Notes under the pieces: model-generated
The model's input: only the letters and a program-made list of their open reading frames with translations
Databases searched by the model: none
Told to the model about the DNA's origin: nothing
Shown here: one piece after another, positions 10,673-40,450 of the stretch
Position numbering within the stretch: position 1 is the first letter of the stretch
Layout: every line of letters begins with the position of its first letter
Translations under genes and position numbers: made by a program
NCBI GenBank assembly: GCA_021777565.1
Contig: JAJYDJ010000001.1
Span: 314,856-360,681 of the forward strand
Source: a bacterium
Lineage (GTDB): Bacteria; Patescibacteriota; Microgenomatia; Levybacterales; UBA12049
Length of the DNA stretch: 45,826 bases
Direction: 5' to 3'

Positions 10673-10681
10673 AGCCTACCA

Positions 10682-11236: not shown

Positions 11237-11262
11237 ATACTAAGTATAGCAAAGCATTCGTC

Positions 11263-11296
11263 GTCTGTTGACAGACATGCGTGTCGGGTATACGCT
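11263..11296 (+). promoter_or_regulatory. Sigma70-type promoter with a palindromic operator over the -35
   Basis: GTCTGT-TG-ACAGAC (11263-11276) contains TTGACA (11268-11273); TACGCT follows after 17 nt. Confidence 0.45.
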
Positions 11297-11319
11297 GAGG
11301 TCAGGAAGAAGGTGAGGGC

Positions 11320-11418
11320 ATGAAACAGGTCGTAGTCGCCGGGAGTATCCTGGTTGCAACCATCGTTTTTGGCTACACTGGATACGCACTCTATTTGAAA
11401 TTATTTAGATTATTTTAA
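11320..11418 (+). CDS. Small single-TM protein (32 aa): MKQVVVAGSILVATIVFGYTGYALYLKLFRLF
   Basis: Below the ORF-track cutoff; SD-like GAAGGTGAG upstream; one hydrophobic helix; lies in otherwise empty space. Confidence 0.55.
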   Translation: MKQVVVAGSILVATIVFGYTGYALYLKLFRLF

Positions 11419-11469
11419 GAATAACTTTCTAGTTATTTGTCTCTATATTGTCTATGCTACGATAGTAGT

Positions 11470-23907: not shown

Positions 23908-23976
23908 ATGAAGTGCTGCTGAGTCTTTTGCAAGGATCATAGACCTAGATTGCTAACGCAACGAGACTCAGCGATT

Positions 23977-24014
23977 CTCATGCAAATACTCGCATTCTCG
24001 AGTTTTCCCATGAG
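23977..24014 (-). terminator. Hairpin that would be the tRNA-Gln 3' trailer/terminator in the empty site
   Basis: CTCATG-caaat-ACTCG-cattct-CGAGT-tttcc-CATGAG abuts the left crossover core. Confidence 0.45.
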
Positions 24015-24040
24015 CTGCGGGCAATGGACTACATTAGAAC
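24014..24040. repeat. Left junction: GCTGC core plus P' arm
   Basis: GCTGC (24014-24018) then GGGCAATGGACTACATTAGAAC; mirrors the arm at 39258-39280. Confidence 0.7.
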
Positions 24041-24114
24041 CTATTATACACAACTTTCGCTCTCACGGTCATATTGATTAACTATTATAAGCAGCAAACA
24101 GTTATATTGATAAT

Positions 24115-24888
24115 ATGGCGCGTGTTGTAAATATTTACAGGTATAAAACTACTAATATTGGCGATCGTTACTCATCGCCATCTTTATATTTTGATTGGCT
24201 ACGTGATGCCGATACAACTGATATCTGGACAGAAAACATAGGTAAATCAATTAATGACATTCGTAAGAAAGTTCTTATTTTGGGTGGTGGAGGTTTAATA
24301 GCAAATCATGACTTTGAAAAGTCAGTTGCTTGGCTAAGTAATGCGCCTTTTGTAAAGAAAGTAATTTGGGGAGCAGGGCACAATACCCATGGTACAGATA
24401 GGATAGAGAAAGTTAGTAGATATATTAACAAGTTTGATCTTGTAGGAATCCGAGATATAGGTACTAAATATACATGGGTACCTTGCGTAAGCTGTATGCA
24501 CAAATTATTCGATATTGAGTATGCCACCAAACATGAGATTGTGGTATATGAGCACAGAAGCTTCCCTTTAGACATAAATATTTACCCTAAGCACAATAAT
24601 CGTTCAGATAACTTGGAGGAAGTACTTGCCTTCTTGGGTTCTGGAGAAACTATTATTACAAATAGCTATCATGGTGCATATTGGGCAACTTTACTTAGGA
24701 GAAAAGTTATTCTCATAGATCCGTTCTCTTCAAAATTTAGTAGAATGAATTACTCTCCGATTATTTCAACTAGTCATGAGTATAAAAAATATCTTAAAGA
24801 TACCAGAATATATCCAAATGCATTAGAAGAATGTAGAAAAATCAATATTGATTTCGCAGAGAGTGTAAAAAGGATGGTTTTTTCTTAA
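24115..24888 (+). CDS. Polysaccharide pyruvyl transferase-like protein
   Basis: ILGGGGLI, IWGAG, VGIRD, VPCVS, ITNSYHGAYWATLL. Confidence 0.7.
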   Translation: MARVVNIYRYKTTNIGDRYSSPSLYFDWLRDADTTDIWTENIGKSINDIRKKVLILGGGGLIANHDFEKSVAWLSNAPFVKKVIWGAGHNTHGTDRIEKVSRYINKFDLVGIRDIGTKYTWVPCVSCMHKLFDIEYATKHEIVVYEHRSFPLDINIYPKHNNRSDNLEEVLAFLGSGETIITNSYHGAYWATLLRRKVILIDPFSSKFSRMNYSPIISTSHEYKKYLKDTRIYPNALEECRKINIDFAESVKRMVFS

Positions 24889-24904
24889 CATCCTTGTAGA
24901 AGAG

Positions 24905-25426
24905 TTATCTATGCAACTGCTTCCATAGATCAGTAGCATCTTGAAACATTGCTTTTCCTAAATCTCCCCATGGAACAAACTCATGAACGTTTGCACTAGG
25001 AACAAAATCTCTTTCCCACGTTTTTCCATTATCAGGATCTGGACGTGAAGGTGATAATTCATCGAGATCACAAATCATTCGCGCTTGGTAAAAGATATCT
25101 CCTTCGACAGTATTTGGATTATTTGGGTATGTTACTTTTTGTACCCCAAGTATACGAATGTTCTTAACAGTAATTGTTACCTCCTCATCAAGTTCACGTA
25201 TAAGTGTTTCTTCAATTGATTCTACTCCCTCTGGTTTCCCCCCAGGTATTTGCCATTTACCAGTATTGACAGATCGGCAGATTAGTATCTCACCTTTATT
25301 GTTAAAGCATATTCCATATACTTGAGTAATCGGTAGAAATGTATCTTTTTGATCTGTGCGTATCCATTCAAGATTAATAGTAGTGCCTTCATATACATAT
25401 GAGGATTGGGGATTTTTAGTATCCAT
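24905..25426 (-). CDS. NUDIX hydrolase (paralog of 33801-34340)
   Basis: IPGGKPEGVESIEETLIRELDEEV. Confidence 0.9.
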   Translation of the reverse strand: MDTKNPQSSYVYEGTTINLEWIRTDQKDTFLPITQVYGICFNNKGEILICRSVNTGKWQIPGGKPEGVESIEETLIRELDEEVTITVKNIRILGVQKVTYPNNPNTVEGDIFYQARMICDLDELSPSRPDPDNGKTWERDFVPSANVHEFVPWGDLGKAMFQDATDLWKQLHR

Positions 25427-25486
25427 ATATCAATAATAACAGAAATACATATTGTATTCAATAAACTGGTACGATAGAATGTCCAC

Positions 25487-26446
25487 ATGCAAACAGCATT
25501 GATATGTGGGGCAAGTGGTTTTATTGGCACTCACCTTGTTAGACGACTTAAAAATGAAGGCTACTGGGTAAGAGGAGTGGATATTAAAGCACCTGAGTTT
25601 AGTGACTCAACAGCAAATGAGTTTTTTCTTCTCGATTTAAGAAAGGAGCAAGATTGTATAAAAGCATTAACTTTAGCTGACGGATTCGATGAAGTATATC
25701 AATTGGCAGCCGACATGGGAGGCATGGGATATATTGAATCTGCGGAGTGTGAGATTATGCATAATAATGTATTAATCAATACATATATGATTGATCAAGC
25801 AATTAAATTGAAAGCAAAGAAGTATTTTTATTCTTCATCAGCTTGCGTATATAGGGATATGAAAATTGGCGAAGATGCATTAACTGAAGAAGAAGCGTAT
25901 CCTGCACTTCCTGATAATGAATATGGTTGGGAGAAATTATATTCAGAGAGGGTTGTTAGTGCGTATGGTCGCAAATATGGAATCACTGTGAAAATATCTA
26001 GATTTCAAAACTGCTATGGTCCAGAAGGCGCATGGATTGGTGGAAGAGAAAAGGCTCCAGCAGCAATTTGTAGGAAAATAGCAGAAGCCCAAGATGGTGG
26101 TACAATTGAAGTGTGGGGCGATGGGACTGCTGTTAGATCCTTTATGTATATAGATGACTTACTTGATGGCATTCGCTTATTAATGAATTCGAATGTCTCA
26201 GAGCCTGTACATATTGGCAGCCCTGAATATGTCTCAGTTAATCAATTGGTAGAGGTAGTTTCTATGATAGCTAAAAAAAGAATAAATATAAAGTATGTTA
26301 GTGGTCCTCGAGGTGCAGAATCACGTAATATTAGTAATGAAAAAATATATGCTCTTGGTTGGAAGCCAAAGTTCTCTTTAGAAGATGGGATTAGATTAAT
26401 GTATCCATGGGTGGAAGAACAGGTATTACATTGTAAATATACATGA
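25487..26446 (+). CDS. NAD-dependent epimerase, GDP-mannose 3',5'-epimerase-like extended SDR
   Basis: GASGFIG, QLAADMGGMG, SSSACVY, YGWEK (YxxxK), GGREKAPAAICRK, WGDG. Confidence 0.88.
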   Translation: MQTALICGASGFIGTHLVRRLKNEGYWVRGVDIKAPEFSDSTANEFFLLDLRKEQDCIKALTLADGFDEVYQLAADMGGMGYIESAECEIMHNNVLINTYMIDQAIKLKAKKYFYSSSACVYRDMKIGEDALTEEEAYPALPDNEYGWEKLYSERVVSAYGRKYGITVKISRFQNCYGPEGAWIGGREKAPAAICRKIAEAQDGGTIEVWGDGTAVRSFMYIDDLLDGIRLLMNSNVSEPVHIGSPEYVSVNQLVEVVSMIAKKRINIKYVSGPRGAESRNISNEKIYALGWKPKFSLEDGIRLMYPWVEEQVLHCKYT

Positions 26447-27102
26447 AATTATTCATATTTGATTTTGATGGACCGATTAATAATCTAACAGAATCCAAAA
26501 AAGCTGCTTTACAGAAGATATCGCAGAAATTAAAGCTTGAAATGCCTCCTTTAACACAGTGGCATTTTATTAATTACATAGATCAGATCTATGAAGCGGA
26601 GAAAGAGTTCGATTATCAAAGGTTAGTTTCAAAAGTGTTAAGAAAGTTAGTACGCGAAAATCTTCTGCAAATCTCCGATACGACTATAGAAGACTTTGCA
26701 AGAATATTTAGTGAATTGCTATCGAAAAATATGATTATTCACCCAAACCTTGAGCAAATAATTGCTGGATATAAAAAGAATGGGGATGTTCAATGTTGTA
26801 TATACACAAATCAAAAACGTGAATATATTATCAATCTTCTCAAGGAGAACCATATTGACGAAACAATTTTTGAAGCAATCTATGGTAGAGAAATGTTTGA
26901 TGAAGTTAAACCTTCCATGAAAAATCTGATGCAAATTGCAAACGACTTTAGAGCTGAATATCAAGATGTGACTGTATTTGGAGATCGAGTCGTTCTCGAC
27001 TTAGAACCAGCAGCATATCTGGGTATGCGTACGGTATTGGTCAATAGATTTGTCTCAACCGCCGTTTTTTCTTTAGAAGACTTTACTGAAGATTCTCAAT
27101 AA
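26443..27102 (+). CDS. HAD-family phosphatase
   Basis: FDFDG (motif I), YTN, KP, VFGDRVVLD. Confidence 0.88.
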   Translation: MKLFIFDFDGPINNLTESKKAALQKISQKLKLEMPPLTQWHFINYIDQIYEAEKEFDYQRLVSKVLRKLVRENLLQISDTTIEDFARIFSELLSKNMIIHPNLEQIIAGYKKNGDVQCCIYTNQKREYIINLLKENHIDETIFEAIYGREMFDEVKPSMKNLMQIANDFRAEYQDVTVFGDRVVLDLEPAAYLGMRTVLVNRFVSTAVFSLEDFTEDSQ

Positions 27103-27952
27103 ATTGAGAGATTTGTGTTAAAGAACCCTGAATGTAATAACAAGGAATAGTCTCAGCAATAGATATAGCGAAATTCAATCTTGCTTGTGCAATTGACTGC
27201 GTGTCAAGGGATCTTAGTGGAGTGGTCATGTTGAAAATAGATCCGTTGATTAACCGTATATCCTTTGTAAGTTCTTCATATAGCATCCATTTCGTTTGAT
27301 CTAAAGAATATAACTTCGCAACTAAATTGTCAGCGTCATTAGTAACAACAGGTATGATAATATATGATAGCTTCGGAGGTGTTGATACGTTAACAATTTC
27401 TATCTCACTTTGAACATTCATATAATCGGATAATCTCTCTTTAGTTTTACTCTCGATATAAATCTTTTTCGTTTGTCCAGAGAAACCAATAGTAGCCGAG
27501 TTAAGAGAAGTCTTCTCATCTGAATATAAAGTGTACCCGTTTATTTTACATAGAAAAAGAGCTGTAGATGTTTTCCCCAGTCCTGTGAGATTTCCCATAA
27601 AGAGTATGCCCTTCCCATTTTTATGTATTGCCGACGAGTGAATAGTGTATATCCCAATCTCTTGACGATTTCTTTCTAAAATAGATTCACAGAGTACAAT
27701 TATGTCTGAGCTAGTATAGTCATTGTTAAAAACACCTTGGATATATGCTTTTGATTTATTGAGTCTATATTTTTTCAACTCTAAATTAACAACATCGATC
27801 TTACTCGTAGGATAGTTATCTAACTTTAAATCAGGTATAAACTTATACAACAAAGAGTTGTTAAGGATAGCATCCCAAATTAACTGGTGATCGATACCCT
27901 GCGTAATAATCTCTATCCCAAAGGTTTGTGAACCAATTGTTTTATAATTCAT
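27083..27952 (-). CDS. HPr-kinase/PEPCK-like P-loop kinase
   Basis: IHSSAI, GNLTGLGKTS (Walker A-like), LYSDE (Walker B-like). Confidence 0.6.
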   Translation of the reverse strand: MNYKTIGSQTFGIEIITQGIDHQLIWDAILNNSLLYKFIPDLKLDNYPTSKIDVVNLELKKYRLNKSKAYIQGVFNNDYTSSDIIVLCESILERNRQEIGIYTIHSSAIHKNGKGILFMGNLTGLGKTSTALFLCKINGYTLYSDEKTSLNSATIGFSGQTKKIYIESKTKERLSDYMNVQSEIEIVNVSTPPKLSYIIIPVVTNDADNLVAKLYSLDQTKWMLYEELTKDIRLINGSIFNMTTPLRSLDTQSIAQARLNFAISIAETIPCYYIQGSLTQISQFIENLQ

Positions 27953-29082
27953 TATTTAACGTAACTCTCATAGAGCTGAACTAGCATTTCTACATTTTTT
28001 CTCATATCCCAACTTTGTTTTACTTGAGTGAATGCATTATTAACTAATGTAGATCTAAGGTTGGTATCTTGAAGTAGTTTTTGAATCATTGCTGCTAGTT
28101 TATCGGGTTTATTTGGTTTCGCTAGTAAGGCTGTATGTTCATGTCTTGCAAACTCAATCATACCGCAACAATTACTTGTAACTATTGCGCAGCCAGATGC
28201 AGCGGCTTCCATCATAGTCGTTAAGACACCCTCGTAGTTCGATGATGGGCAAAGAAATACTTTAGATCTGTGATAGTAGTCTTGTAATACTGATTCATCA
28301 ACATTATGGTAGAGTTCCACTTTATCGGTTAAATCAAGATCTTTTATTCTGTTTTTTAGATTATCTAATTCAGGTCCATCACCGACCATTACAAGTTTAT
28401 TGAATGCAATTCCCATCTTTAGTAATATTGTTAACGCATCTAATATATTATAGATTCCTTTATATGCAAACAGTCTCCCAACATATAATAAGTCTATGTC
28501 TCGTATATCATTAGAAAATGTAAACTCATTTAAATTGATACCATTATAATTTATCTCAATATCTTTGTTCTCTAGTTTTGGGTATAAACTCATCCAGCCT
28601 TCTTTTATTGACCCAGAAACAGCGATAAATCTATTTGGACGGTCAAGAAATATATCATCAAATGACCTATATTCAACTGGTACACCATGTAGGTGAAGTA
28701 CGTTTGTAAAGCTTTCTGGGATAAAGATACTATCAGAAAGTAAATGCGTTATTACTAAGTCATAACTGTCCTTGTTTTCAAAATAGAAAGACTGAGCTTT
28801 TTGCCCAAAGTAAATAGCTTCTTTGTCCCATCGTGTCCAATCCATAGTGGCTTCTTCTGTATATATTTTTCTCTGTGATGGACTAAGAAGTATTTCATGT
28901 ACTTTAATTTGACGGTTTTGGTGACGGAATTGATTATATAGCGTAGAATATGCTATCGGTTTTGCAGTAAGAATAGTCACATCATGCCCAAGTTGGCTCA
29001 GTATTGCTGCTTGTTGTAAGGGTACAATCTCTCCGCCCCCGAGATAATATGATAATCGTGGATGATGAATTAGTAATTTCAT
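27952..29082 (-). CDS. GT4 (GT-B) glycosyltransferase
   Basis: GGGEI, YVGRLFAYKG, EGVLTTMMEAAASG (EX7E). Confidence 0.92.
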   Translation of the reverse strand: MKLLIHHPRLSYYLGGGEIVPLQQAAILSQLGHDVTILTAKPIAYSTLYNQFRHQNRQIKVHEILLSPSQRKIYTEEATMDWTRWDKEAIYFGQKAQSFYFENKDSYDLVITHLLSDSIFIPESFTNVLHLHGVPVEYRSFDDIFLDRPNRFIAVSGSIKEGWMSLYPKLENKDIEINYNGINLNEFTFSNDIRDIDLLYVGRLFAYKGIYNILDALTILLKMGIAFNKLVMVGDGPELDNLKNRIKDLDLTDKVELYHNVDESVLQDYYHRSKVFLCPSSNYEGVLTTMMEAAASGCAIVTSNCCGMIEFARHEHTALLAKPNKPDKLAAMIQKLLQDTNLRSTLVNNAFTQVKQSWDMRKNVEMLVQLYESYVK

Positions 29083-29083
29083 T

Positions 29084-29998
29084 CTATATCCCTCGTGTTC
29101 TTTTATGCTTACTCTGTAGAAAATGTAGATACGCCATATTCACTGTGGCTAACATTGCCCAATCTTGCTTTCTTAATGCATAACTATTTTTATTCATCCA
29201 TGTTTTAAAATATGTATATATAAGTTCTACAGTATTATGATGTTTTTTTACATAAGTAAGGAAATCTCGTGTATCATAGTAGAGTAATTTCTTGGAGCCT
29301 CTTCCAATTGTTGCAGAGACCTTATGGTAGGCTTTTGCTGTTGGTACTGAGCATTGTAGCCAACCTAAATCTGATATCCGCTTTTGCCAATCTGTGTCAG
29401 CATAGTATAGAAAAAAATTCTCGTCCATTAGACCTGTTTCTTTAATTACATTTCTTGGCAAAAGTATACATGCTCCAGGAAGTTTAGTTACCAGGAAGGG
29501 CTCTTTAGGACTTTTTTCATCTTCATAAACCCATTTTGGCATCGGCTTAGCATGAAAGATATTTACGTAGCCACCTGAAATTTCAAAAAGTTTTTTGTCA
29601 AAGTACGAATACATTCTAGGGCCAAATATTCCAGCTTTGCTATTAGATTCGGCTTCATTGACAAGTTCTTCAACGCAATGTTTATTCATGAAAACATCGT
29701 TGTTCATTGACAGAATATATTTCACAGAAGTTTTTAAAAAGAAAGATATTCCGACGTTGTTTCCTCCACTATAGCCCGTATCAGATTTTAAGTAAACGTA
29801 GTTAAATTCTGGGAAATCTGCTTGAATTTTGCTAGTAGAGTCATCACTTGATTTTCCATCAACTATAACCACCTCAATGTCTTTGAATGTTTGTTTTTTT
29901 ATGTGTTCAAGACATTCTTTTGTATCTTTATAGTTGTTCCAGTTGAGGATGACAATACCGACAGTTGGTTTTAGTGTATTTTTCTTTCGTAGGTCCAT
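29084..29998 (-). CDS. GT2 glycosyltransferase (rhamnosyltransferase-like)
   Basis: VILNWN, VDGKSSD, GYSGGNN, MNNDV, FFLYYADTDW. Confidence 0.9.
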   Translation of the reverse strand: MDLRKKNTLKPTVGIVILNWNNYKDTKECLEHIKKQTFKDIEVVIVDGKSSDDSTSKIQADFPEFNYVYLKSDTGYSGGNNVGISFFLKTSVKYILSMNNDVFMNKHCVEELVNEAESNSKAGIFGPRMYSYFDKKLFEISGGYVNIFHAKPMPKWVYEDEKSPKEPFLVTKLPGACILLPRNVIKETGLMDENFFLYYADTDWQKRISDLGWLQCSVPTAKAYHKVSATIGRGSKKLLYYDTRDFLTYVKKHHNTVELIYTYFKTWMNKNSYALRKQDWAMLATVNMAYLHFLQSKHKRTRGI

Positions 29999-30972
29999 AA
30001 GTTATCATTATATTTAGGTGAAATGTGAAATAATAGATTACTTGTTTTTTTGATTATAACATAACCTATAAAGGTTAGTTGTATCCTTAAAGGAAGAGAT
30101 CTAATATAGTCCCAATCTAGCTTAACAGCAATTTTATTCTTTACATCAATTAAGTTATCAGTCTGAAACTCAGGTAGCATAAACAGTGTATACGTATCAC
30201 AGAAAATTCGTTTATATACCTTCCAATATTCTTTTAAAGAAGTAGTCGGCTCATAGAAGCATGCTGCATCATATCGGATACGAATTGAGTTTCTACCAAA
30301 CCTTGAATAAACATCCAAAGTCAAATAAGTGTCGTCACCAATTCTGTCTGGTGGAACTCTCCAGATATCTTTATTTCTTAAAACATAAAATCGCCCATGG
30401 AAATATATCCTTGATCTTAATTCAAAAGTGTAAGGCATGTTAGGTTGCGGATCAACTAAAGCCAACTCATGATATGAGCTTACATCTTTCGTTGCCACTT
30501 GTGATAGTGGATATCTCGATCTGATGTCAATCATCCTAGCCAGGAGGGTACGAAGAAAGCTTTCTCCAGAGAATTGTCTTGCGAATGGATGCCCTCCTAC
30601 TATTAGTAATTCAGGATGTCTGCAAAGCTCATTTAATAAAATATGAATTGACGATCTACTTAGTTGTACGTCTGCATCAACTTTTATTATTGGTATATCA
30701 CTTTTCTCTAATTTAGATATTATTGTGCATAGTGCTTTGTTCATGCCTTTTTCGCTATATAAGATATTAATCTTCAAAACAGACAATGTTTTCTGTAGTA
30801 TCTTTGCTATTTGCTCTGTTTTATCAGTGCAGCCATTGATACAAATGTAGGTTTTTTCTAGTGTAAATTGTTTATCTGCAAATTTTACTGCTCTAGCGAT
30901 ACTTTCGAAAAACGCAGACAATGTTCTCTCTTCATTATAGGCAGGAACTATAATATAATATGAATGCTTCAT
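29971..30972 (-). CDS. GT2 glycosyltransferase
   Basis: IVPAYNEE, NGCTD, VDADV, GDDTYL. Confidence 0.85.
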   Translation of the reverse strand: MKHSYYIIVPAYNEERTLSAFFESIARAVKFADKQFTLEKTYICINGCTDKTEQIAKILQKTLSVLKINILYSEKGMNKALCTIISKLEKSDIPIIKVDADVQLSRSSIHILLNELCRHPELLIVGGHPFARQFSGESFLRTLLARMIDIRSRYPLSQVATKDVSSYHELALVDPQPNMPYTFELRSRIYFHGRFYVLRNKDIWRVPPDRIGDDTYLTLDVYSRFGRNSIRIRYDAACFYEPTTSLKEYWKVYKRIFCDTYTLFMLPEFQTDNLIDVKNKIAVKLDWDYIRSLPLRIQLTFIGYVIIKKTSNLLFHISPKYNDNLWTYERKIH

Positions 30973-31049
30973 ATGAGCGAGCCCTATAGGTTTGACACAT
31001 AATTAAAACTCAAGTAAGATTAGCTGACTATATCATATTTGGATAATTT

Positions 31050-31658
31050 ATGGCTAATACTGATTTAAGTTCTCGCTATACTCTCTTCGTCCTTAAACCT
31101 GACGCTATAGATCAAGCCCTTGATCCGATAATGATTAATGATCTAGAAGAAGCAGGGCTAACAGTTGTAAAACATAAGTTATTACATTTGACCCCCGAAC
31201 AGGCAGCAGTTCTTTATTCAGAAAAGGAAAGATATAATTATTTCTCCCAGTTGGTCAGTTTTATGGCGTCGAGCCAGTCCTTTTTCCTATTGATTAAATT
31301 TAATCATGACACAGAAGCTGATATTGTTATTGAAGCAAAAAAATATAGAGATTGGGCGAGGTTACATCTGAAGTTAGATAACTATGAGCTCACAGAGAGC
31401 GACATGAGGCAACTTGCAATGGGGACCCATCCACTACAAGCAGAGATTACCACAACAATGGCATTAAGAAATTTAATTCACGTTCCAGACGATTTGGAAT
31501 CAGTGATGCCACTATTAGCAGAATTATTTACCGAAGATGACATTGATGAATTGGAAAATAGAGAGCCAGAATTACACGCAGCGCTGAGTGTGGCAAGGCA
31601 AGAGATAGCGATTTCCAGAGATATAGAAACTCATTCTAGTAATAAAGAGAGGGGATAA
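31050..31658 (+). CDS. Divergent nucleoside-diphosphate kinase-like protein
   Basis: TLFVLKPDA, LTPEQAAVLY, YFSQLVSFMAS, NLIH (phospho-His position). Confidence 0.75.
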   Translation: MANTDLSSRYTLFVLKPDAIDQALDPIMINDLEEAGLTVVKHKLLHLTPEQAAVLYSEKERYNYFSQLVSFMASSQSFFLLIKFNHDTEADIVIEAKKYRDWARLHLKLDNYELTESDMRQLAMGTHPLQAEITTTMALRNLIHVPDDLESVMPLLAELFTEDDIDELENREPELHAALSVARQEIAISRDIETHSSNKERG

Positions 31659-32693
31659 ATGAAATACTTGGGCGTCAGTATTGTCATATGTTGTCACAAC
31701 AGTTCAAAAGTTATTGAAAACACATTGCTCCATCTTGCTAAGCAACAAGTTACATCTCAACGACAATGGGAGATAATTCTAGTTGATAATGGTTCAATAG
31801 ATAATACTATTCCTATCGTAAAGAAATTTTTAAGCCAATATATACAACTGAAAGAGATATTAAGAATTGTTAAAGAGAAAAATCTCGGACTAGCCAACGC
31901 AAGAAATAAAGGTTATTTTTCTTCAAAGTACGATATCATAAGTTTTATTGATGATGATAACTTGGTATCGCCTAATTGGGTTGATAGAGTGGGCCAAATT
32001 ATGGAAAGTGATCCCCATATAGGCGTTTGTGGAGGACAAAGCAAAGAGCCGCCCTATCTCAAAAAACCATTTTGGTTTGAGAAATATAAAGAATGTTATG
32101 CAATTGGCAGGCAAGGGAAAGGTTCTCAAGATATTACATCCCAAAGAGGATTTGTATGGGGAGCAGGAATGAGCGTAAGAAAAAAAGCATGGAAGCAACT
32201 AATAAAAAAACATTTCACATTTTTCTTACAAGGAAGGTTGGGGGAAATTAAGAATGCTGGAGAAGACTCGGAGTTATGCTTTGCTTTACGATTGGATGGT
32301 TGGAAAGTCTGGTATGATGATCGACTTATATTTATACATGCCATATCTCAAGATAGACTAAGTTGGTCTGAATTAAGAAAAATGTTTCGTGGCTTTGGTG
32401 TCGGCAGAGCAGGTCACGATCCATATTTCTTTGCTGAGGAACAAAGTCCTACATTATTTGCTAAGTTGTTTTATATGAGATGGTATGGTCAAGTCTGTAT
32501 GGTGATCTTTACAGTGTTGGTTCCATCCTTCCTGAAGTCAGTGAAAGACACACCTAAAGGCTGGGATGGAAATCCTTATATCTTGAAATTAGAACACTCC
32601 TGGGGAAGAATATGCTTCTTGTTATCAAAGCGATCAAAGTACGATCAATATACTCAGATATTAAGGCATAACTTTAAACAGAATAATATATGA
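31659..32693 (+). CDS. GT2 glycosyltransferase
   Basis: SIVICCHNS, VDNGSID, GLANARN, FIDDD, WGAGM, GEDSELC. Confidence 0.92.
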   Translation: MKYLGVSIVICCHNSSKVIENTLLHLAKQQVTSQRQWEIILVDNGSIDNTIPIVKKFLSQYIQLKEILRIVKEKNLGLANARNKGYFSSKYDIISFIDDDNLVSPNWVDRVGQIMESDPHIGVCGGQSKEPPYLKKPFWFEKYKECYAIGRQGKGSQDITSQRGFVWGAGMSVRKKAWKQLIKKHFTFFLQGRLGEIKNAGEDSELCFALRLDGWKVWYDDRLIFIHAISQDRLSWSELRKMFRGFGVGRAGHDPYFFAEEQSPTLFAKLFYMRWYGQVCMVIFTVLVPSFLKSVKDTPKGWDGNPYILKLEHSWGRICFLLSKRSKYDQYTQILRHNFKQNNI

Positions 32694-33586
32694 AGATATT
32701 GTATCTATACGATATTGATAATTGGGCTATACATAATGTTGGTAAGTTATGGTTTGAGAATGTTAAACAACATGAGATTGTTTTCAAAAACTTTTTTGAG
32801 GTTCAAGACGAGAAAAAAATTTATATTAACTTCGATCTTATATGGTTTGGTTATATAGACCTTTATCTATTTTCTAAGGAAAAACCCAAAAATTCTATTG
32901 TTTCTATTCACGATCCGAAAGAGATTTTTGATCAAGTTCCTAATTGGAAAAAAACTTTACCAAATAAAGATAAGATTGACATATTAAGAACTGTTTTTAA
33001 ATGTGTGACCATTTCAAGAGAATTGTTCACAATTTTAACAAAATACGGCATAGATGTAGAACACATACCTACGGCAAGTAGATTACCCTATAGAGATACT
33101 TTAAAAGTTTTCACAGAAAAATCAGATATAACTTCTGTCTTTCAAGTATACAGAAGAAAAAACCCAGATTTAATGTATTCTCTACAACAGAAAGTAGTGA
33201 ATGAACTAAATATAAAATTTGACCTTAAGGTCGGACGTGATATCTTAACAAGGACAAAATATATCAAGTATTTAGATAGTCATGAGATATATATTTGTAC
33301 ATCATATCAGGAAGGTGGACCAATCCCCGTTATGGATGCTATGAACAGAGGGATGGTTATCTTATCAACACCCGTGGGGCAGGTGTTGGAACTAGTTGAA
33401 GATGGAGTAAATGGGTTCTTCTGTTATTCTTTTGATGATTTTTATAACAAGATACAGATGCTATCGGAAGATTTGATACTGTTGGATAGTATGAGACAGA
33501 ATGCAATTGCGACAATCAAGAGCAAAAGAAGTTTGTCTATAATCGATCAGAAGGTGGATATTGTAATCAACAAGTTCTACCGCTAG
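32690..33586 (+). CDS. GT4-like glycosyltransferase
   Basis: C-terminal CTSYQEGGPIPVMDAMNRG...STPVG...DGVNGF. Confidence 0.8.
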   Translation: MKILYLYDIDNWAIHNVGKLWFENVKQHEIVFKNFFEVQDEKKIYINFDLIWFGYIDLYLFSKEKPKNSIVSIHDPKEIFDQVPNWKKTLPNKDKIDILRTVFKCVTISRELFTILTKYGIDVEHIPTASRLPYRDTLKVFTEKSDITSVFQVYRRKNPDLMYSLQQKVVNELNIKFDLKVGRDILTRTKYIKYLDSHEIYICTSYQEGGPIPVMDAMNRGMVILSTPVGQVLELVEDGVNGFFCYSFDDFYNKIQMLSEDLILLDSMRQNAIATIKSKRSLSIIDQKVDIVINKFYR

Positions 33587-33800
33587 TCCCCCTTCTAAAG
33601 CAGGGTATGCTGACAAAGTTATAAATATCGAACATCCCAAGATACTTTGGAATCATTCATGAAACTGAAATTAGATTGTCCCCGCCGTTAGCCTAACTAC
33701 GTCCTTTGATTATACTTTGAAGTTTCTTAATATCTAAGAGTAGATACCCAGCCCCTTCGTCTGATATGCGCCTTGCTCAATAACTGAAATCTCTGCATAC

Positions 33801-34340
33801 CTAGGGGCGACGAGAATCCTGCCATAACTTAATAGCATCATTAAACATTGCTCTTCCCGCCTCACCCCATGGTACCAACTCAGTAACCTGATCTTGAGTA
33901 ACAAATTGTCTTTCCCATGTTTGATTTATTGCTGGATCTGGTGTTGAAGGCAATATTTCTTCAATATCACAAATCATCCTCGCTTGATAAAAATCATCTC
34001 CGATAGCTTGATCTGGGTTGTTCGGGTAATGAACTCTTTGTACGCCTAGCATTTGCACGTTACTGACTCTAATATCCACCTCCTCATGTAATTCACGTTG
34101 TAAAGTTGCTGTTAGAGTTTCATTGCCTTCTGGTGTGCCACCTGGGATTTGCCATCCACCAGTAGAAGAAGATCTACATACTAGTATTTCACCAGCTGCA
34201 TTAAAGCAAATGCCATAAACTTGAGTTACAGGAGAGAATTCATCTTCCTTATCAGTTCTAATCCATTCAGTGGTTATAGGCGCACCATGAAACTCATAAG
34301 CAGTTCTTGGATATCTGTTGGCTGGATCTAGCTCATTCAT
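33801..34340 (-). CDS. NUDIX hydrolase (paralog of 24905-25426)
   Basis: IPGGTPEGNETLTATLQRELHEEV; start refined to ATG 34340. Confidence 0.9.
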   Translation of the reverse strand: MNELDPANRYPRTAYEFHGAPITTEWIRTDKEDEFSPVTQVYGICFNAAGEILVCRSSSTGGWQIPGGTPEGNETLTATLQRELHEEVDIRVSNVQMLGVQRVHYPNNPDQAIGDDFYQARMICDIEEILPSTPDPAINQTWERQFVTQDQVTELVPWGEAGRAMFNDAIKLWQDSRRP

Positions 34341-34468
34341 CCTGATCAATTATACTAAATAGATAATAAATAATTAACTAACCTACTTGTACTCAAAACA
34401 CAAACGATATAATCTAAACTCTCAGATATATATAAATCAGCGATAGCTTATGTTAGAATTAATTGAAT

Positions 34469-34855
34469 ATGACTAAAATTCAAGAAGAAGTTAAGAAGTA
34501 CTTAGATGAACGGAGTTGGAATCACTTAGCCCCTGCAAATTTAGCCAAGTCTATTATGATCGAGGGTGCTGAACTTCTTGAATTATTCCAGTGGGATAAT
34601 TATACAGTTGAACAAATTAAAGAAAAACCAGAATTAGAGGAAAAGATAAAAAAAGAAATTGCTGATGTAATGATTTACTGTACAGAACTGGCAGTTCATC
34701 TGAACTTAGACATAGAAGAGATTATCCTTTATAAATTAAAGCTCGCTTCTGAAAAATATAAAGCTGCAGAAGTTATGAAACATAAAGGAGAAAAAACAGA
34801 AGATTCTTTTTACTTAAAGAAGAAGATGGAATATCGTGCTGAGAAAAAGAGTTAG
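34469..34855 (+). CDS. MazG-like nucleotide pyrophosphohydrolase (dCTPase-like)
   Basis: NLAKSIMIEGAELLELFQW...EIADVMIY. Confidence 0.9.
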   Translation: MTKIQEEVKKYLDERSWNHLAPANLAKSIMIEGAELLELFQWDNYTVEQIKEKPELEEKIKKEIADVMIYCTELAVHLNLDIEEIILYKLKLASEKYKAAEVMKHKGEKTEDSFYLKKKMEYRAEKKS

Positions 34856-35109
34856 CAGACTTACAACTAAAGTTAGGCCGTGAGCTTCTCTAGTGCCCCG
34901 TACAACTATTACCCCTGACATTTTGACTAATATCATCTTTCGTAAGATTAAGCCTATCTAGTTCATTTAAAAGCTTTACAAAATCATATATTATACCTCA
35001 GGGTAGGATACAACTTCACCATTAATGCAGATCTATTCTAAGAAGCGTAAGAGTGCTATTATCCATAGTAAGTTCACATTTAAATAATTTAAAGATGTAA
35101 TAAAGAGTT

Positions 35110-35811
35110 ATGAAAATCACTAAGATATTTCGACTAGAAATTCCTGAGAACGCAAGTGTAAATCAGATACGAGATTATTTGACACTCGAAGAGACGAAAA
35201 AGGTTATCGACTTTCTTGAATCCTCAACCTTATTTGAAAAACAAGTAAAATCATTAAGAAGCAGATATAAGATTCCTCTTAATGGATATCCTACAGACAA
35301 CAAACATTCCCCCTACGACATTTTAGGACGAGAGAGCTTTTCTGCGCTTGAGTCTGATTGCTTTACATTACTAAATACTCTTACCCTTCCTGAATATTGG
35401 CTAGAAACAATAAAAATGTTTGTATTCCACAATGCAATTATTACTCCAAAGAAAGAAGCTTTTCGAATAATTCCGAGAGAGAATACGCCACAAGGTAGAG
35501 AGCTATATCCATATATAGAAATCCTAGAGAGGCTAAGTAAAAGGCAATTTTTACTTGAAGTCGAAAAAAACTGGCAAGAAATAGAAGAAGCAATGAAAGT
35601 ATTACCTAGTACCCCCAAGCATAAAATGCTGCGATCAGACCTGGCAAAAAGGATAGTTGAGCTACACGACATCGATAGTAAAACATTCGCACAAATTGCA
35701 GATCAGCTATTTCAAGAGTTAATTGAATCTGGTGACTATAACATTATCAACGAAGACTATGTTAAAAACCTATACCACCGATGGAAAAAACGTAAAGATT
35801 CTGTTTTTTAA
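35110..35811 (+). CDS. Hypothetical protein, possibly with a C-terminal HTH (element regulator)
   Basis: C-terminal RIVELHD...TFAQIADQL...YVKNLYHRWKK resembles an HTH; first gene of the mobility module. Confidence 0.6.
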   Translation: MKITKIFRLEIPENASVNQIRDYLTLEETKKVIDFLESSTLFEKQVKSLRSRYKIPLNGYPTDNKHSPYDILGRESFSALESDCFTLLNTLTLPEYWLETIKMFVFHNAIITPKKEAFRIIPRENTPQGRELYPYIEILERLSKRQFLLEVEKNWQEIEEAMKVLPSTPKHKMLRSDLAKRIVELHDIDSKTFAQIADQLFQELIESGDYNIINEDYVKNLYHRWKKRKDSVF

Positions 35812-35928
35812 GCCAAAGCGTATTAGTTAATATCCATAACAACTCATACCCAGATCATTAGATACGACCTTTAGCCGATACAGACTTCAATAACTACAAG
35901 AGTTACTCTAATTCAGAAAGGTAACTCC

Positions 35929-36216
35929 ATGCATAAAATTAAAGTAACGGATATACAAATCATACCTATTGTCCCAAAAGATGGATTGGTAGGATTTGCA
36001 AGCATTGTGCTTAATAATTTGCTTTATCTTAGTTCAATCGGTATTTATACTCGACTAGAAGGTGGATTTAGGCTAACCTATCCTACAAAAAAAGTAGAAA
36101 TTAAGAACATAAACATCTTCTATCCAATTAGCAAAGAGTTTGCAGCCTATTTGGAAATATCTGTAACCAAAAAATTTGAAGAAGTAATAAAAGCGAGGTT
36201 ATATGCAAACGAATAA
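35929..36216 (+). CDS. SpoVG-like nucleic-acid-binding protein
   Basis: VTDIQI...GFASIVLN...GI...G...YP...FYPI fits the SpoVG pattern. Confidence 0.7.
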   Translation: MHKIKVTDIQIIPIVPKDGLVGFASIVLNNLLYLSSIGIYTRLEGGFRLTYPTKKVEIKNINIFYPISKEFAAYLEISVTKKFEEVIKARLYANE

Positions 36217-36370
36217 CCTACTGCCACAACAAGCAATTGATGAATTTAAAATCATATACCTCAAGAAATTTGGTAAAAAGATCACTGATGAACAAGCACG
36301 AGTACAAGCTATGCAATTGTACCAGCTCTATGACGCTGTGTATAGAAAACGAGTAAAGCAAAAGTCTTAG
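36203..36370 (+). CDS. Small helical protein (55 aa): MQTNNLLPQQAIDEFKIIYLKKFGKKITDEQARVQAMQLYQLYDAVYRKRVKQKS
   Basis: Below the ORF-track cutoff; overlaps the SpoVG-like stop; GAGG 4 nt upstream; fills the gap before rep. Confidence 0.75.
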   Translation: MQTNNLLPQQAIDEFKIIYLKKFGKKITDEQARVQAMQLYQLYDAVYRKRVKQKS

Positions 36371-36398
36371 CGTATTACTAGGACTTCTGTACACAAAT

Positions 36399-37577
36399 AT
36401 GATAATTACTATGATAGATACTATTGGCTTTTCTATACCTCTTGGGAGCTATACGGTTCTCGATCGAGCACTATTTACTCCTTCTCTTGATTTGATCGAT
36501 CCACAAAATGACTCAGAGGTCATCCAGTTCTTACAAACTAAGAAAGGGATTCAAAGCTATCGACTGAACCCCAAGCATACACAAAAAGAACAAGGTTTCG
36601 CTTATCCAAACATAACTATCTATGAGACATATAAGCATACCAGTGGGTATCAATGTAACCTCAAGCCACATATCTCTATTCCCAAAATGCTCTTTGGACA
36701 TAGTATTGAAGAGGTCAATGACACCTACTATCAAGAGGCTGTTAATACACTACAGTCACGACTCAAAGATATGGGCCTATTAGTATTCGAAAAAGCGATT
36801 CATGAGGCGAGCGTTACCACACTTCATTACTGCATAAACATACTGATGGAATCAGAGACAGACGCTCGAAGATTTCTCACGGCCTTAAGTAAAATGAATT
36901 TAGACGACAGGTACCAAACTCATGATCGTGACTATACAAATGGTGGACGATCTGTTCGTTTTCATACAGATACGTTTGAGCTAATAGCTTACTTGAAATA
37001 CTATGACTTTTTAGAAAGTGGTATGAACAGGATTGATAGAAAGCCGACACTACAAGAAAGAACGATAGCTGAGAGACTATCAAAGTCTAAAACGTTACCA
37101 CCATTGGTCAGAATAGAGGTAAGATTTAATGGGAAGCCATCAATACGAAAACACCTACATACCATTTTAGAAATAGATAAACCTACTTGGACATTGCGAG
37201 ACGTGTTTTCTGAAGACATAAGCAGAAAAGTAGTCAAGTTCTATTGGGATAAACTTATGGATAAACCAAACAATAGGCTTATGCTTATGAATATTTCACG
37301 ATCAGATATATATCGTAAAGCGAAAGAGAACTTCCAACAGATACCCCAACGTATCTTAGACGCGACAATTGGGAGCTTTGAAAGGTTACAGGCAGATGGG
37401 GCATTACAATTTAAAGAAGATGCGCTCAAATTGTATAGCCGAACCAAGTACTATAATGACCAAAAGCGAATAATGGAGTTTCTTCGTATAAATAACTTAG
37501 CAACAGATACTAGGCTTATTGAATTTATTGATAGTGCGGTTTACCATAAACCCATGCAGTTAGGACTTCCTATATGA
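36399..37577 (+). CDS. Putative rolling-circle replication initiator/relaxase (Rep_trans / phage gene II-CRI-like)
   Basis: MIDTIGF start, SIPKMLFGHSIEEV, VTTLHYCIN (degenerate RxD strand), AYLK (YxK), VRIEVR; located beside the integrase. Confidence 0.55.
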   Translation: MIITMIDTIGFSIPLGSYTVLDRALFTPSLDLIDPQNDSEVIQFLQTKKGIQSYRLNPKHTQKEQGFAYPNITIYETYKHTSGYQCNLKPHISIPKMLFGHSIEEVNDTYYQEAVNTLQSRLKDMGLLVFEKAIHEASVTTLHYCINILMESETDARRFLTALSKMNLDDRYQTHDRDYTNGGRSVRFHTDTFELIAYLKYYDFLESGMNRIDRKPTLQERTIAERLSKSKTLPPLVRIEVRFNGKPSIRKHLHTILEIDKPTWTLRDVFSEDISRKVVKFYWDKLMDKPNNRLMLMNISRSDIYRKAKENFQQIPQRILDATIGSFERLQADGALQFKEDALKLYSRTKYYNDQKRIMEFLRINNLATDTRLIEFIDSAVYHKPMQLGLPI

Positions 37578-37579
37578 CA

Positions 37580-37608
37580 TTGACATTGTTTGCTTGGAGA
37601 GAAATAAT
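37580..37608 (+). promoter_or_regulatory. Sigma70 promoter of the recombinase
   Basis: TTGACA (37580-37585), 17 nt spacer, AATAAT (37603-37608); predicted start site near 37615. Confidence 0.6.
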
Positions 37609-37614
37609 ACAGAC

Positions 37615-37701
37615 GTGCTCAGATATTCCTGTTGGGATTTTTAATGCCCTCATTGGACAGATCCTAATAGGTCTGAGCACAACCAGTGGGGGCATTTGAG
37701 T
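37615..37701 (+). ncRNA. Structured 5' leader of the recombinase mRNA with two alternative folds
   Basis: Fold A: 37615-23/37672-80 plus 37628-38/37661-71. Fold B: 37643-56/37683-96. Each long helix includes two G-U pairs. Confidence 0.55.
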
Positions 37702-39339
37702 ATGGATAATAAAATTGAATACTTTATTTATGCAAGAAAAAGTAGTGAATCTGAAGATAGACAAGTACTTTCTATTGAGTCTCAAAAAAATGAAATGAAA
37801 GACCTTGTTAAACGTGTCGGACTTAACATCGTTGCTATAAAGGAGGAGGCACACTCAGCAAAAGCTCCAGGCAGACCCGTCTTTAATCAAATGCTTGATG
37901 AAATCGAGCAAGGTAAGGCTCAAGGAATTATTGTTTGGAATCCTGATAGAATGTCTAGAAATTCAGTTGATACAGGAAGAATTATTTATCTGCTCGACCT
38001 TGGAAAACTTCAAGAACTGGTGACTCCCTCGCAAGTATTTCGGAATACCCCCAATGATAAGTTCCTTCTATCTCTGCTTTGTTCTACAGCTAAATTGGAT
38101 AACGACAATAAGGGTGTCAATGTAAAACGAGGACTCAAAGCCAAGGCTGAAATGGGTATTTATCCAGCGCCTGCTCCTACAGGGTATGTAAATAACAAAT
38201 ACGCAGAGCGTGGCAATAAGACAGTTGAGATTGATCCAGAACGTTTTGATTTAGTCAAAAAGATGTTTGACATGGTTCTTTCACAAAAATATACACCGAT
38301 ACAGGTACTCAAGATTGCTACAGATGATTGGAAGTTTAAAACCAAGGAAGGCAAGAAGCTGGCACGTAGTACGTGGTATAGGATGCTTACTAATCCAGTC
38401 TATGCAGAAACCTTTGAATACCCTCTCAATAGTGGTAACTGGCATAAAGCTGCACACCTACACATGATTACGGACGAACAGTTTGATTTTATCCAGATTT
38501 TACTAGGTAAAAAAGGCAAACAGAAGCCTAAAAGTCACATATTCGCATTTACTGGACTTATTCGCTGTGGAGAATGTGGAGCAATGATAACGTGCGAAGA
38601 GAAGATAAAGAGACAGAAAAGTGGCAAGGTACATGTATATATTTACTACCATTGTACTAAGAGAATAAACCCAGATTGCACACAAGGTTCCATAGAAGAG
38701 GAAGAGCTAAAGAGACAAATTCTTATAAAACTTTCTGAAATAAAAATACCTAATGAGTTTCATAACTGGGCATTAAAGTGGCTCAGGAAAACGAACCAGA
38801 CCGAGTTTCAAACAACAAGCGAAATACTCAGTTCTCAACAAAAAGCATATAAGCTCTGCTTAGAGCAAATAAGCGAGCTCATTGATATGCGAGCTGCAAA
38901 GGAAATTACACCAGAAGAGTTTAAGGAAAAGAAGCCAAACCTAGAAAAGGAAAAGAAACGACTGGAGGAGCTACTTAATGATACGGGAGAGCATGTGAGC
39001 AATTGGCTTGCAAAAGCAGATGATGCTTTTGACTTTGCGAGAGACGCAGTAGCAAAGTTTAATGATGGAGAGTTAGAAGACAAGCGGTATGTCCTTTCAC
39101 GTCTTGGTTCGAACCTCCTCTTAAAAGACAAAATCCTCACTATTACGCTCGACGAGGTACTTGAAGCACTTAAAAGTGTAGCAGAAGAGGCAAATCAACT
39201 TTGTGATACGTTAGAACCTGTAGAAGGTATTGATAGGACAGTCCAATTAGAGACTTTGTACGAACAAAATCCACGAATGCTGCTGAGCCTGGACTCGAAC
39301 CAGAATAAACAGCTCCAAAGGCTGCTGTCCTACCATTAG
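37702..39339 (+). CDS. Large serine recombinase (resolvase, recombinase, zinc-ribbon and coiled-coil domains)
   Basis: YARKS catalytic Ser, SAKAPGRPVF, DRMSRN, CGECG...YYHC...C; the C-terminus reads through the antisense tRNA. Confidence 0.95.
   Translation: MDNKIEYFIYARKSSESEDRQVLSIESQKNEMKDLVKRVGLNIVAIKEEAHSAKAPGRPVFNQMLDEIEQGKAQGIIVWNPDRMSRNSVDTGRIIYLLDLGKLQELVTPSQVFRNTPNDKFLLSLLCSTAKLDNDNKGVNVKRGLKAKAEMGIYPAPAPTGYVNNKYAERGNKTVEIDPERFDLVKKMFDMVLSQKYTPIQVLKIATDDWKFKTKEGKKLARSTWYRMLTNPVYAETFEYPLNSGNWHKAAHLHMITDEQFDFIQILLGKKGKQKPKSHIFAFTGLIRCGECGAMITCEEKIKRQKSGKVHVYIYYHCTKRINPDCTQGSIEEEELKRQILIKLSEIKIPNEFHNWALKWLRKTNQTEFQTTSEILSSQQKAYKLCLEQISELIDMRAAKEITPEEFKEKKPNLEKEKKRLEELLNDTGEHVSNWLAKADDAFDFARDAVAKFNDGELEDKRYVLSRLGSNLLLKDKILTITLDEVLEALKSVAEEANQLCDTLEPVEGIDRTVQLETLYEQNPRMLLSLDSNQNKQLQRLLSYH
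39258..39283. repeat. Right junction: P arm plus GCTGC core
   Basis: GTACGAACAAAATCCACGAAT then GCTGC (39279-39283) at the tRNA 3' end. Confidence 0.7.
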
Positions 39340-39350
39340 ACGACTCAGCA
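39280..39350 (-). tRNA. tRNA-Gln (anticodon TTG), CCA not encoded
   Basis: TGCTGAG/CTCAGCA acceptor stem; D-arm GTCTAATGGTAGGAC; anticodon arm GCAGC-CTTTGGA-GCTGT; T-arm CTGGTTCGAGTCCAG. Confidence 0.95.
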
Positions 39351-39382: not shown

Positions 39383-40450
39383 TTAGGAAGCGAGTGAGTC
39401 GTTGATGTCTGCAATCAGTTGTGGCCCAGTAAAGATCATGCCGGTAATGAGCTGCGTAAGATCGGCACCTGCATGAAGCTTCTCTTTTGCATCGTCGGGA
39501 CTAAAAATACCCCCACACCCAATGATAGTAAATCGATTTTTATATTTTTTTCGAGTGAGGGATATAAGATAATTTGACCTGGCAAAGGCGGGTCTCCCAC
39601 TGAAGTTTCCTCTTCCCGCATGATCTATTTCTTCTTTATCAAATGCAGGGTCTGTTCTATCTTGTTGCAAGTTACCGATGATAACTCCAATCGCACTGCT
39701 TGCATTAATTTCTTGCAAAAGTTTTTCAAAAACATCATTTGGTTGCGATATTGGCATTTTGATAAAAAGTGGTCTGGCGAGCTTGAGCTGATCAATAGCG
39801 TGAAGTAGTTTTCTTAATTCTTTCGGATCATAAAATGTGACATCACCAGCTAAATTTGGACAGCTGATATTGAGTTCATAATATGAATGATACATACGAG
39901 CTTTTTCAAATTTTGTAAAACAAGAAACAATATCTTTCACACTGTCCTCTTGTGAAAGTGTGGCATCATTGGTTCTCCCAACACTTATACCAACTGGGAT
40001 AGCAAATGTCTGATTTTGCAAATTTCTAATGATGGCATCTGCTCCAGGATTTTTAAATCCTTTATTTACCAGAAGTGACTGAGACTTGGGAAGCCGTGCA
40101 AGCATCGGTCGCGGATTGCCTTGATAGGAATGGTTGGTTATCGTGCCAATGGTATGAAATCCAAACCCGAGAGTTGGAGTTATTTGTGTCAGTCGTGCTT
40201 CATAATCAAATCCAGCAGCCAGGCCAACTGGACCAGCAAATGGTATGCCATGTAGTGTCCGTTGGAGCTTTTTTAGAGCCGGACCAAAAAGAGTTTTAAA
40301 AAGATATACGGTTAGTTCTCGTGAACCAAAAAATTCACCGAGTAGTGTGAATCTCGTGTGTACCCACTCGGCGTCAAAACGAAAGAGTATGGGTTTCAGA
40401 ATTGATTGGTATACCAGTCCAATAAGTAAACGACAGTATTTTTGTATCAT
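39383..40450 (-). CDS. pyrD: Dihydroorotate dehydrogenase, class 2-like
   Basis: N-terminal helical extension, GLAAGFD, GTIT...GNPRP, NKGFKN, ELNISCPN, IGCGGIFS, QLITG. Confidence 0.9.
   Translation of the reverse strand: MIQKYCRLLIGLVYQSILKPILFRFDAEWVHTRFTLLGEFFGSRELTVYLFKTLFGPALKKLQRTLHGIPFAGPVGLAAGFDYEARLTQITPTLGFGFHTIGTITNHSYQGNPRPMLARLPKSQSLLVNKGFKNPGADAIIRNLQNQTFAIPVGISVGRTNDATLSQEDSVKDIVSCFTKFEKARMYHSYYELNISCPNLAGDVTFYDPKELRKLLHAIDQLKLARPLFIKMPISQPNDVFEKLLQEINASSAIGVIIGNLQQDRTDPAFDKEEIDHAGRGNFSGRPAFARSNYLISLTRKKYKNRFTIIGCGGIFSPDDAKEKLHAGADLTQLITGMIFTGPQLIADINDSLAS

Follow-up and report, generated by a model that had tools for sequence, protein, structure and literature searches.

The 45.8-kb stretch of DNA analysed here (the ‘window’) contains, between positions 24014 and 39283, what is very probably an integrated mobile element, inserted into the chromosome of a member of the Patescibacteria (Microgenomates-like) by the element’s own large serine recombinase (LSR). 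Composition and gene content both change exactly at these two boundaries. GC content is 35.5% between the ends vs 42.5% outside; 5-kb ranges are disjoint (0.342–0.364 in the island vs 0.402–0.449 in the flanks); and the tetranucleotide distance to the flank profile is ~2-fold higher inside the island. A preliminary description of this DNA had proposed such a shift from spot counts of 16 and 23 G+C per line; both counts are exact, and the sliding GC and tetranucleotide profiles each change inside the island. The flanks carry housekeeping genes: to the left an SGNH/GDSL hydrolase of host-type GC (23260–23940, − strand; Pfam), to the right dihydroorotate dehydrogenase (DHODH; 39383–40450, − strand; Pfam), MutL and MutS. 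The closest relatives of the DHODH, at ≤58% identity, come from metagenome-assembled genomes (MAGs) of Patescibacteria, of Levy- and Roizmanbacteria type.

ARAGORN finds a single tRNA gene in the window, an intact tRNA-Gln(UUG) with U1–A72 and G73, located at the right-hand end of the island (39280–39350, − strand; Rfam RF00005, 58.7 bits; ARAGORN 39279–39350, with G73 placed at 39280). The two ends of the island share the pentanucleotide GCTGC (24014–24018 and 39279–39283; spacing 15,265 bp), the right-hand copy spanning one trailer nucleotide together with tRNA positions 73–70. Both this 5-bp core and the lack of a long duplicated tRNA fragment had been put forward in the preliminary description and stand, a repeat search having returned neither such a fragment nor any longer direct repeat; a tyrosine-integrase-style model, with its long tRNA-derived direct repeat, is ruled out by the same search. 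With 75 occurrences of GCTGC/GCAGC in the window, the 5-bp core alone is no better than chance and, as it is insignificant by itself, the left boundary becomes significant only through evidence from the wider family.

The recombinase gene (int; 37696–39339, + strand; 545–547 aa) has Pfam matches to Resolvase (PF00239, E = 7e-21), Recombinase and Zn_ribbon_recom (PF07508 and PF13408, both above cut-offs), as well as to PHROG 95 (integrase, E = 1.6e-67); its best NCBIfam matches, XisF and CcrB, are both far below cut-offs. In 32 family members the catalytic residues R12, S14, R83, S85 and R86 do not vary, D82 is conserved to at least 90%, and four cysteines (C289, C292, C318 and C326), within the zinc-ribbon region or close to it, are likewise invariant; the sequence supports a complete integrase of LSR type, for which recombination activity is predicted. 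The open reading frame (ORF) reads through the right-hand junction, such that its last 19 codons (LSLDSNQNKQLQRLLSYH) are antisense to the acceptor stem, T arm and anticodon arm of tRNA-Gln; the phage-type attachment site, attP, thus lies inside the 3′ coding end of int, where its P half-site encodes ...YEQNPRM. Joining position 39282 to 24018 leaves the reading frame open (...NPRMLRAMDYIRTYYTQLSLSRSY, followed by a stop), the tail of the integrase reading ...LRAMDYIRTYYTQLSLSRSY in its free form, through the P′ half-site, and ...LLSLDSNQNKQLQRLLSYH in its integrated form, through the antisense strand of tRNA-Gln. When compared with the sequence LRALDDVRT seen in relatives, the rebuilt tail (LRAMDYIRT) is identical at 6–7 of 9 residues to six of seven class-B tails, and at 4 of 9 to that of P0035; when all 91,594 six-frame positions of the window are scored, just two attain a 6/9 match, one of them being 24015. 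When integrated, int and tRNA-Gln are convergent with a 60-nt overlap and the tRNA is separated from its native downstream hairpin, making antisense effects on int expression possible.

At E ≤ 1e-20 the integrase has >3,800 homologs, almost all of them from metagenomes and from MAGs of Patescibacteria. The window element is one of a very large family in Patescibacteria, apparently undescribed: full-text literature searches turned up neither an account of elements of this kind in the group nor a paper bringing together Patescibacteria, integrative and serine recombinase. Beyond a conserved Y-x-x-(N/S)-P-x-x-L motif the C-termini of the homologs diverge into classes, which we counted among the 120 best matches. 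An antisense T-loop tail ([DE]SN...) is present in 65/120, another conserved tail, LRALD(D/E)VRT..., in 14/120, and an early stop or truncated tail in 41/120. The antisense tail extends as far as the anticodon in 53 of the 65, and the residue encoded at the anticodon position is then Q (tRNA-Gln) in 40, W (tRNA-Trp) in six and E (tRNA-Glu) in five; the presence of W or E at this position indicates clades that target tRNA-Trp(CCA) and tRNA-Glu. These W/E-tail sub-clades (P0038, P0061, P0077, P0078, P0082, P0105 and P0052, P0079, P0083, P0090, P0096) stand at ~50–58% identity. ARAGORN places a tRNA-Gln directly after int in six loci (L047, L048, L055, L056, L057 and L058). A profile scan of viral contigs (IMG/VR) with the family alignment gave five distant integrase relatives only, and a metagenome scan with the integrase just three loci.

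It is the relatives that define the left end. Integrases with an LRALDDVRT-type tail occur in un-integrated or attP-like contexts (L043, L045 and L046), L043 being a 23-kb plasmid-like contig with Rep, Replic_Relax, a toxin–antitoxin pair and a methyltransferase. The DNA that follows the crossover point in these loci (CGGGCATTGGACGATATTCGAACC in L045, CGGGGCTTGGACGATGTTAGAATT in L043) is homologous to the left end of the island, CGGGCAATGGACTACATTAGAACC. A scan with four P′ sequences yields one strong site in the entire window, at 24018, the next-best matches having 6–7 mismatches and falling in unrelated places; in three related elements (L055:386, L056:233 and L041:2088) the same scan again yields a single strong site, which lies at the element's far end, on the correct strand, and is preceded by a core that matches the 3′ end of the local tRNA. 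The resemblance to the left end of L056 continues over the next 16 nt of the window (TATTATACACAACTTT). In L045/L046 a 73-nt ‘Ser(gct)’ tRNA of odd length (11776–11848, − strand) is found ~90 nt downstream of the attP-form integrase, and could be either what is left of a target or a tRNA carried by the element.

An occupied/empty pair is available for a relative: L040 and L041 represent the same groundwater genome recovered from two datasets (99.97% identical), with L040 carrying an extra ~8-kb element, complete with its own 503-aa serine recombinase, that L041 does not have. This newcomer is located between a family integrase (68% identical to that of the window) and a tRNA-Gln-like gene. Its junctions share only GCTCCC (6 bp), which stands in codon and tRNA register just as GCTGC does; its integrase is a distant relative, 23% identical to the window integrase; and its left end, TGG GAT AGC ACA CGG ACT, is an arm of P′ type. 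The P′ arm of the first L041 element in turn abuts the 3′ end of another serine recombinase, from which, together with the position of the newcomer next to the tRNA, we see that elements accrete in tandem at the tRNA. Three serine-recombinase elements in all stand beside one tRNA (L040 1–21665 / L041 1–21593), with a 590-aa integrase at 357–2129, the family integrase at 10001–11593 and the 8-kb third element in L040 only, each newer element sitting tRNA-proximal. The target in L041 (~11584–11920, − strand) is tRNA-Gln-like, having U1–A72, G73 and a T arm (GGTTCGAATCC), and is interrupted by a ~250-nt insert, possibly an intron; ARAGORN makes no call on this gene.

Taking the two ends of the window element together, attL (23996–24041, + strand) consists of a B half-site (23996–24015), a putative TG crossover (24016–24017) and the P′ half-site CGGGCAATGGACTACATTAGAACC (24018–24041), whilst attR (39257–39302, + strand) consists of the P half-site within the int coding sequence (39257–39280), TG (39281–39282) and B′ (39283–39302), the last being the acceptor and T arm of tRNA-Gln. 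Rejoining these arms gives a reconstructed attB of ...GAGTTTTCCCATGAGC-TG-CTGAGCCTGGACTCGAACC... and a reconstructed attP of ...AAAATCCACGAATGC-TG-CGGGCAATGGACTACATTAGAACC... The predicted empty site has tRNA-Gln followed by CTCATGGGAAAAC... and the SGNH gene, with a hairpin of host DNA (23977–24014, − strand) coming directly after the tRNA; the hairpin, already noted in the preliminary description, folds as a 6+3+5-bp stem and is of modest significance (z = −1.86, 71-nt stretch). The cores of five elements intersect at tRNA positions 74–70: GCTGC in the window, TGCTGC in L055, TGCTGGGGGA in L056, GCTCC for element 1 of L041 and GCTCCC for element 2 of L040.

The symmetry of the sites was assessed by counting matches between the 24-nt arms of reconstructed or natural attP sites at each shift. 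The dyad peaks on T[G/C], corresponding to tRNA positions 72–71, with 10 of 24 matches for the window element, 12 for L055 and 11 each for L056, L043 and L045, most other shifts giving 2–9. The proposed TG centre coincides with the maximum in 5/6 attP sites; the maximum of 11 in L045 falls on a TC centre, and the L041 element is ambiguous, with a value of 8. A previously described inverted match of 10/16 between the outer 16-mers was also reproduced (binomial P (≥10/16) = 0.002 for one pre-chosen alignment). Reading outward from the centre, the P′ half-site of the window has TGGAC at +8 and TAGAAC at +18, the B′ half-site TGGAC at +8 and TCGAAC at +13, and the P half-site TGGAT at +8. Across the family, TGGAC at +8 is seen in 6/6 P′ and 4/6 B′ half-sites (the other two B′ having GGGAT/GGGAA), and TnGAAC at +18 in 6/6 P′ but at +13 in 6/6 B′; P half-sites, inside int, have a TGGAT/TAGGA-like motif in 6/8 and a weaker outer motif. 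Within the GAC of the P′ arm the third position is invariant (6/6 sites). The integrase codons for Y520 and P524 (TAC ... CCA) coincide with motifs of the P half-site (GTAC ... TCCA; 39257–39280), and conservation of these residues may reflect a constraint on the DNA site as much as on protein function.

With an attP of ~50 bp, an attB of ~40 bp, an imperfect dyad around a 2-bp centre, and a motif of the type read by the zinc-ribbon domain (ZD) displaced 5 bp inward in attB, the half-sites share the geometry of the LI integrase model from Listeria, where the zinc-ribbon-domain motif occupies positions 16–24 in attP and lies 5 bp nearer the centre in attB (PMC3783163). On the basis of this likeness TG is the best-supported crossover, as the preliminary description had it, and the crossover dinucleotide is most likely TG on the + strand, at tRNA positions 72–71. 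In the mechanism we propose, the LSR would join attP of the element to the host attB, whose strong half would be the acceptor stem and T arm of tRNA-Gln, with strand exchange at the 2-bp overlap TG. Serine recombinases require identity at the crossover dinucleotide only; the junctions consequently share no more than GCTGC and the tRNA sequence is unchanged. Integration would at the same time swap the C-terminal tail of int, from one encoded by P′ to one encoded by the antisense strand of the tRNA.

The only genes common to related elements are int and those for a 392-aa and a 55-aa protein. The 392-aa protein (36399–37577, + strand) adjoins int in L041, L055 and L056 also, at 32–38% identity, and is somewhat better regarded as an HUH-type rolling-circle initiator (Rep) than not, judging from its predicted structure. 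Its AlphaFold (AF2) model has a pLDDT of 85 and, when compared with BFVD using Foldseek, matches unnamed viral proteins and Inoviridae ‘REP’ (E = 4e-11 to 2e-5). A strand of the model carries LHYC (142–145), in which H143 and Y144 are invariant and L142 and C145 at least 90% conserved, and of the motif Y198-x-K200-Y201-Y202 the first three named residues are invariant and Y202 is at least 90% conserved. Both motifs would suit an initiator of HUH type. The protein has no Pfam-detectable similarity to RepSA-type proteins. The 55-aa protein (36203–36370, + strand) has homologs near int in 5/5 elements (L055, L056, L041 element 1, L043 and L045), and is a candidate accessory or directionality factor. 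Neither of these proteins, nor a 233-aa protein encoded nearby (35110–35811, + strand), has a match in Pfam (also at E ≤ 10), PHROGs, NCBIfam or the PDB sequences. A backbone of int, probable rolling-circle Rep and 55-aa protein suggests that the excised circle may replicate like a plasmid. A more ambitious generalisation, to which we give little credence for now, would have Patescibacteria as a whole hosting integrative rolling-circle plasmids that use the T arm as attB half-site, with clades for tRNA-Gln, -Trp and -Glu, and in which the swap of the ~20-residue tail acts as a switch of integrase activity, stability or directionality; such a switch, were there one, might account as well for the stacking of elements at a single tRNA.

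Several observations count against the integrated mobile element we favour, or against parts of it. In the outward motif comparison the host B half-site has no recognisable motif, neither of TGGAC type nor TnGAAC, and the attB model therefore rests on one half-site. TG is assigned by symmetry only, with CT or, although it is palindromic, GC inside the core as formal alternatives. The Rep assignment draws on the resemblance of a predicted structure to viral proteins that mostly lack names, the 392-aa model having no Foldseek match in the PDB. The preliminary description is upheld in its main points: a serine-recombinase element of ~15.3 kb, situated at the tRNA-Gln 3′ end, whose core is minimal and whose attP and attB can be rebuilt. 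It had overlooked that the int ORF runs across the att site, that the family in Patescibacteria is very large, and that the backbone includes a probable rolling-circle Rep. As to its empty allele and circular junction, neither was recovered in the searches made. A scan of genome contigs with DHODH reached 58% identity at best, with no match having tRNA-Gln beside DHODH; homologs of the SGNH hydrolase were ≤63% identical and the two contexts examined were not syntenic. That the closest relatives are at ≤58–63% protein identity and lack synteny explains why no empty allele could be recovered. Exact-protein look-ups (DHODH, SGNH and pyruvyl transferase) returned only the island-bearing strain or contigs broken near attL, and an exact search of IMG/VR for the attP junction gave 0 matches.

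The strain is present in 7–8 assemblies, all 100% identical and with the island at the same place, and the element could as a result be fixed or immobile. An island that was inserted by a serine recombinase and has since become a fixture, its integrase and att sites being relics or kept for another purpose, is a possibility that we take seriously, if as a rather unlikely one; it would fit with this uniformity, with the lack of an attP junction in viral contigs, and with the absence of an FtsK-like transfer gene, unlike the elements of L055 and L056. Against it stand an integrase that is full-length with its catalytic residues intact, two half-sites that match the family consensus without decay, and intact Rep-like and 55-aa backbone genes. 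To these may be added two assemblies that break within 6 nt of attL: MEGAHIT contigs L006 and L005, from two other samples and otherwise identical, end at window positions 24020 and 24024, suggesting that in the populations concerned the sequence is discontinuous at attL. The breaks do not fall on the core itself, lying 2 and 6 nt into the island, and their cause is uncertain. Present-day mobility is, for the favoured reading, a prediction.

The extent of the mobile unit can also be questioned. Were only the ~5-kb backbone (~34.4–39.3 kb) mobile, and the glycan cluster to its left an older host region or separate gain, then the GC content of 0.39 over int vs 0.35 for the cargo, the smaller size of related elements (8–11 kb) and the bracketing of the glycan cluster by NUDIX paralogs would all find a ready explanation; we nevertheless hold this to be very improbable, as the sole P′-type site in the window is the one at 24018, the sequence beyond it is shared with the left end of L056, and the GC and tetranucleotide shifts begin at ~24,000, not 34,400. 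Least credible of all is coincidence, by which a low-GC block would have been acquired non-site-specifically beside a recombinase gene, the 5-bp match and 10/16 symmetry being fortuitous. The abundance of GCTGC/GCAGC in the window agrees with this, and an inverted match that was picked afterwards is weak evidence; it is effectively refuted by the homology of P′, by an ORF tail that is restored on joining the ends, by the register common to five elements and by the occupied/empty pair.

In its mechanism the window element would, from its sequence, be a canonical large-serine-integrase element. With the LSRs of Listeria A118/LI, phiC31, Bxb1, SPbeta (SprA) and SCCmec (Ccr) it shares the order of domains (Resolvase, Recombinase, Zn-ribbon and a long C-terminal region), short att sites with identity over a few bp, and a dyad-symmetric attP; with LI it shares, in addition, the 5-bp inward shift described above. 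Most characterised LSRs have their targets in protein-coding or intergenic sequence. Unlike these, the window element inserts at a tRNA 3′ end, one half-site being the T arm and the second apparently unconstrained; its attP is inside the int coding sequence, with the last ~20 residues differing between the free and integrated forms; and it pairs a Patescibacteria host with a plasmid-like backbone having a probable rolling-circle Rep.

Other integrative elements resemble it in part. The integrative and conjugative elements of actinomycetes (AICEs, such as pSAM2 and SLP1) are small, insert at the 3′ ends of tRNA genes and combine int with a rolling-circle-type Rep and a small accessory protein; classical examples have tyrosine integrases and long tRNA-derived direct repeats. 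The target and gene set are like those of the window element, and the relatives L055 and L056 have an FtsK-like translocase as well; the window element differs in its serine integrase, in having no long repeat and in having no FtsK-like gene. The Ralstonia filamentous phage phiRSM uses a small resolvase-type serine recombinase at the 3′ end of tRNA-Ser, with a longer core, and has a rolling-circle Rep. Here the likeness is in the serine-family recombinase and tRNA 3′ end, the Foldseek matches of the 392-aa protein including Inoviridae Rep, and the difference that no inovirus morphogenesis genes were detected in the window element. SSV-type archaeal integrases and those of integration-dependent immunity phages are tyrosine recombinases with attP within a gene that integration splits or truncates; attP within a coding sequence is thus a shared feature, but in the window element the exchange is confined to the C-terminal tail, and the enzyme is a serine integrase.

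Patescibacteria are tiny, mostly uncultured episymbionts, the mobile elements of which are poorly charted. The family offers a boundary rule for islands that are missed by repeat-based tools, namely P–core–tRNA on one side and core–P′ (TGGAC at +8, TAGAAC at +18) on the other, and its antisense-tRNA-encoded tails account for the odd and variable C-termini of thousands of database entries. Integrases that recognise the conserved T arm while asking little of the second half-site are possible tools for organisms without genetic systems. The cargo of these elements (surface-glycan, restriction-modification and defence genes) is likely to be relevant to host attachment and phage resistance.

In the window element this cargo is a cluster for glycan synthesis/modification (24115–34349; Pfam, NCBIfam; GC 0.35) encoding a pyruvyl transferase, an epimerase/dehydratase, a HAD hydrolase, HprK-like and NDK-like proteins, two GT1 and three GT2 glycosyltransferases, and two NUDIX paralogs. 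The latter (24905–25426 and 33801–34349, both − strand) bracket the cluster and have 59% amino-acid identity, with 73–78% nucleotide identity over ~170 nt; one NCBI MAG contig, JAKBER010000001.1, ends at window position 33940, inside the second copy. Between cluster and backbone there follow, besides the 233-aa protein, which has no family match, a MazG-like pyrophosphatase (34463–34855, + strand) and a SpoVG-like protein (35929–36216, + strand), both identified by Pfam and PHROGs. The elements of L055 and L056 carry FtsK-like translocases, and restriction-modification and defence genes as cargo; Pfam, PHROG and comparison with the relatives reveal no FtsK-like translocase gene in the window element. 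A prophage was considered and is ruled out, as no island ORF has a Pfam or PHROG match to capsid, terminase, tail or inovirus morphogenesis proteins. Elsewhere in the window, a 404-aa ORF at 11437–12651 coincides with a local GC peak of 0.51 and an AT skew of −0.19.

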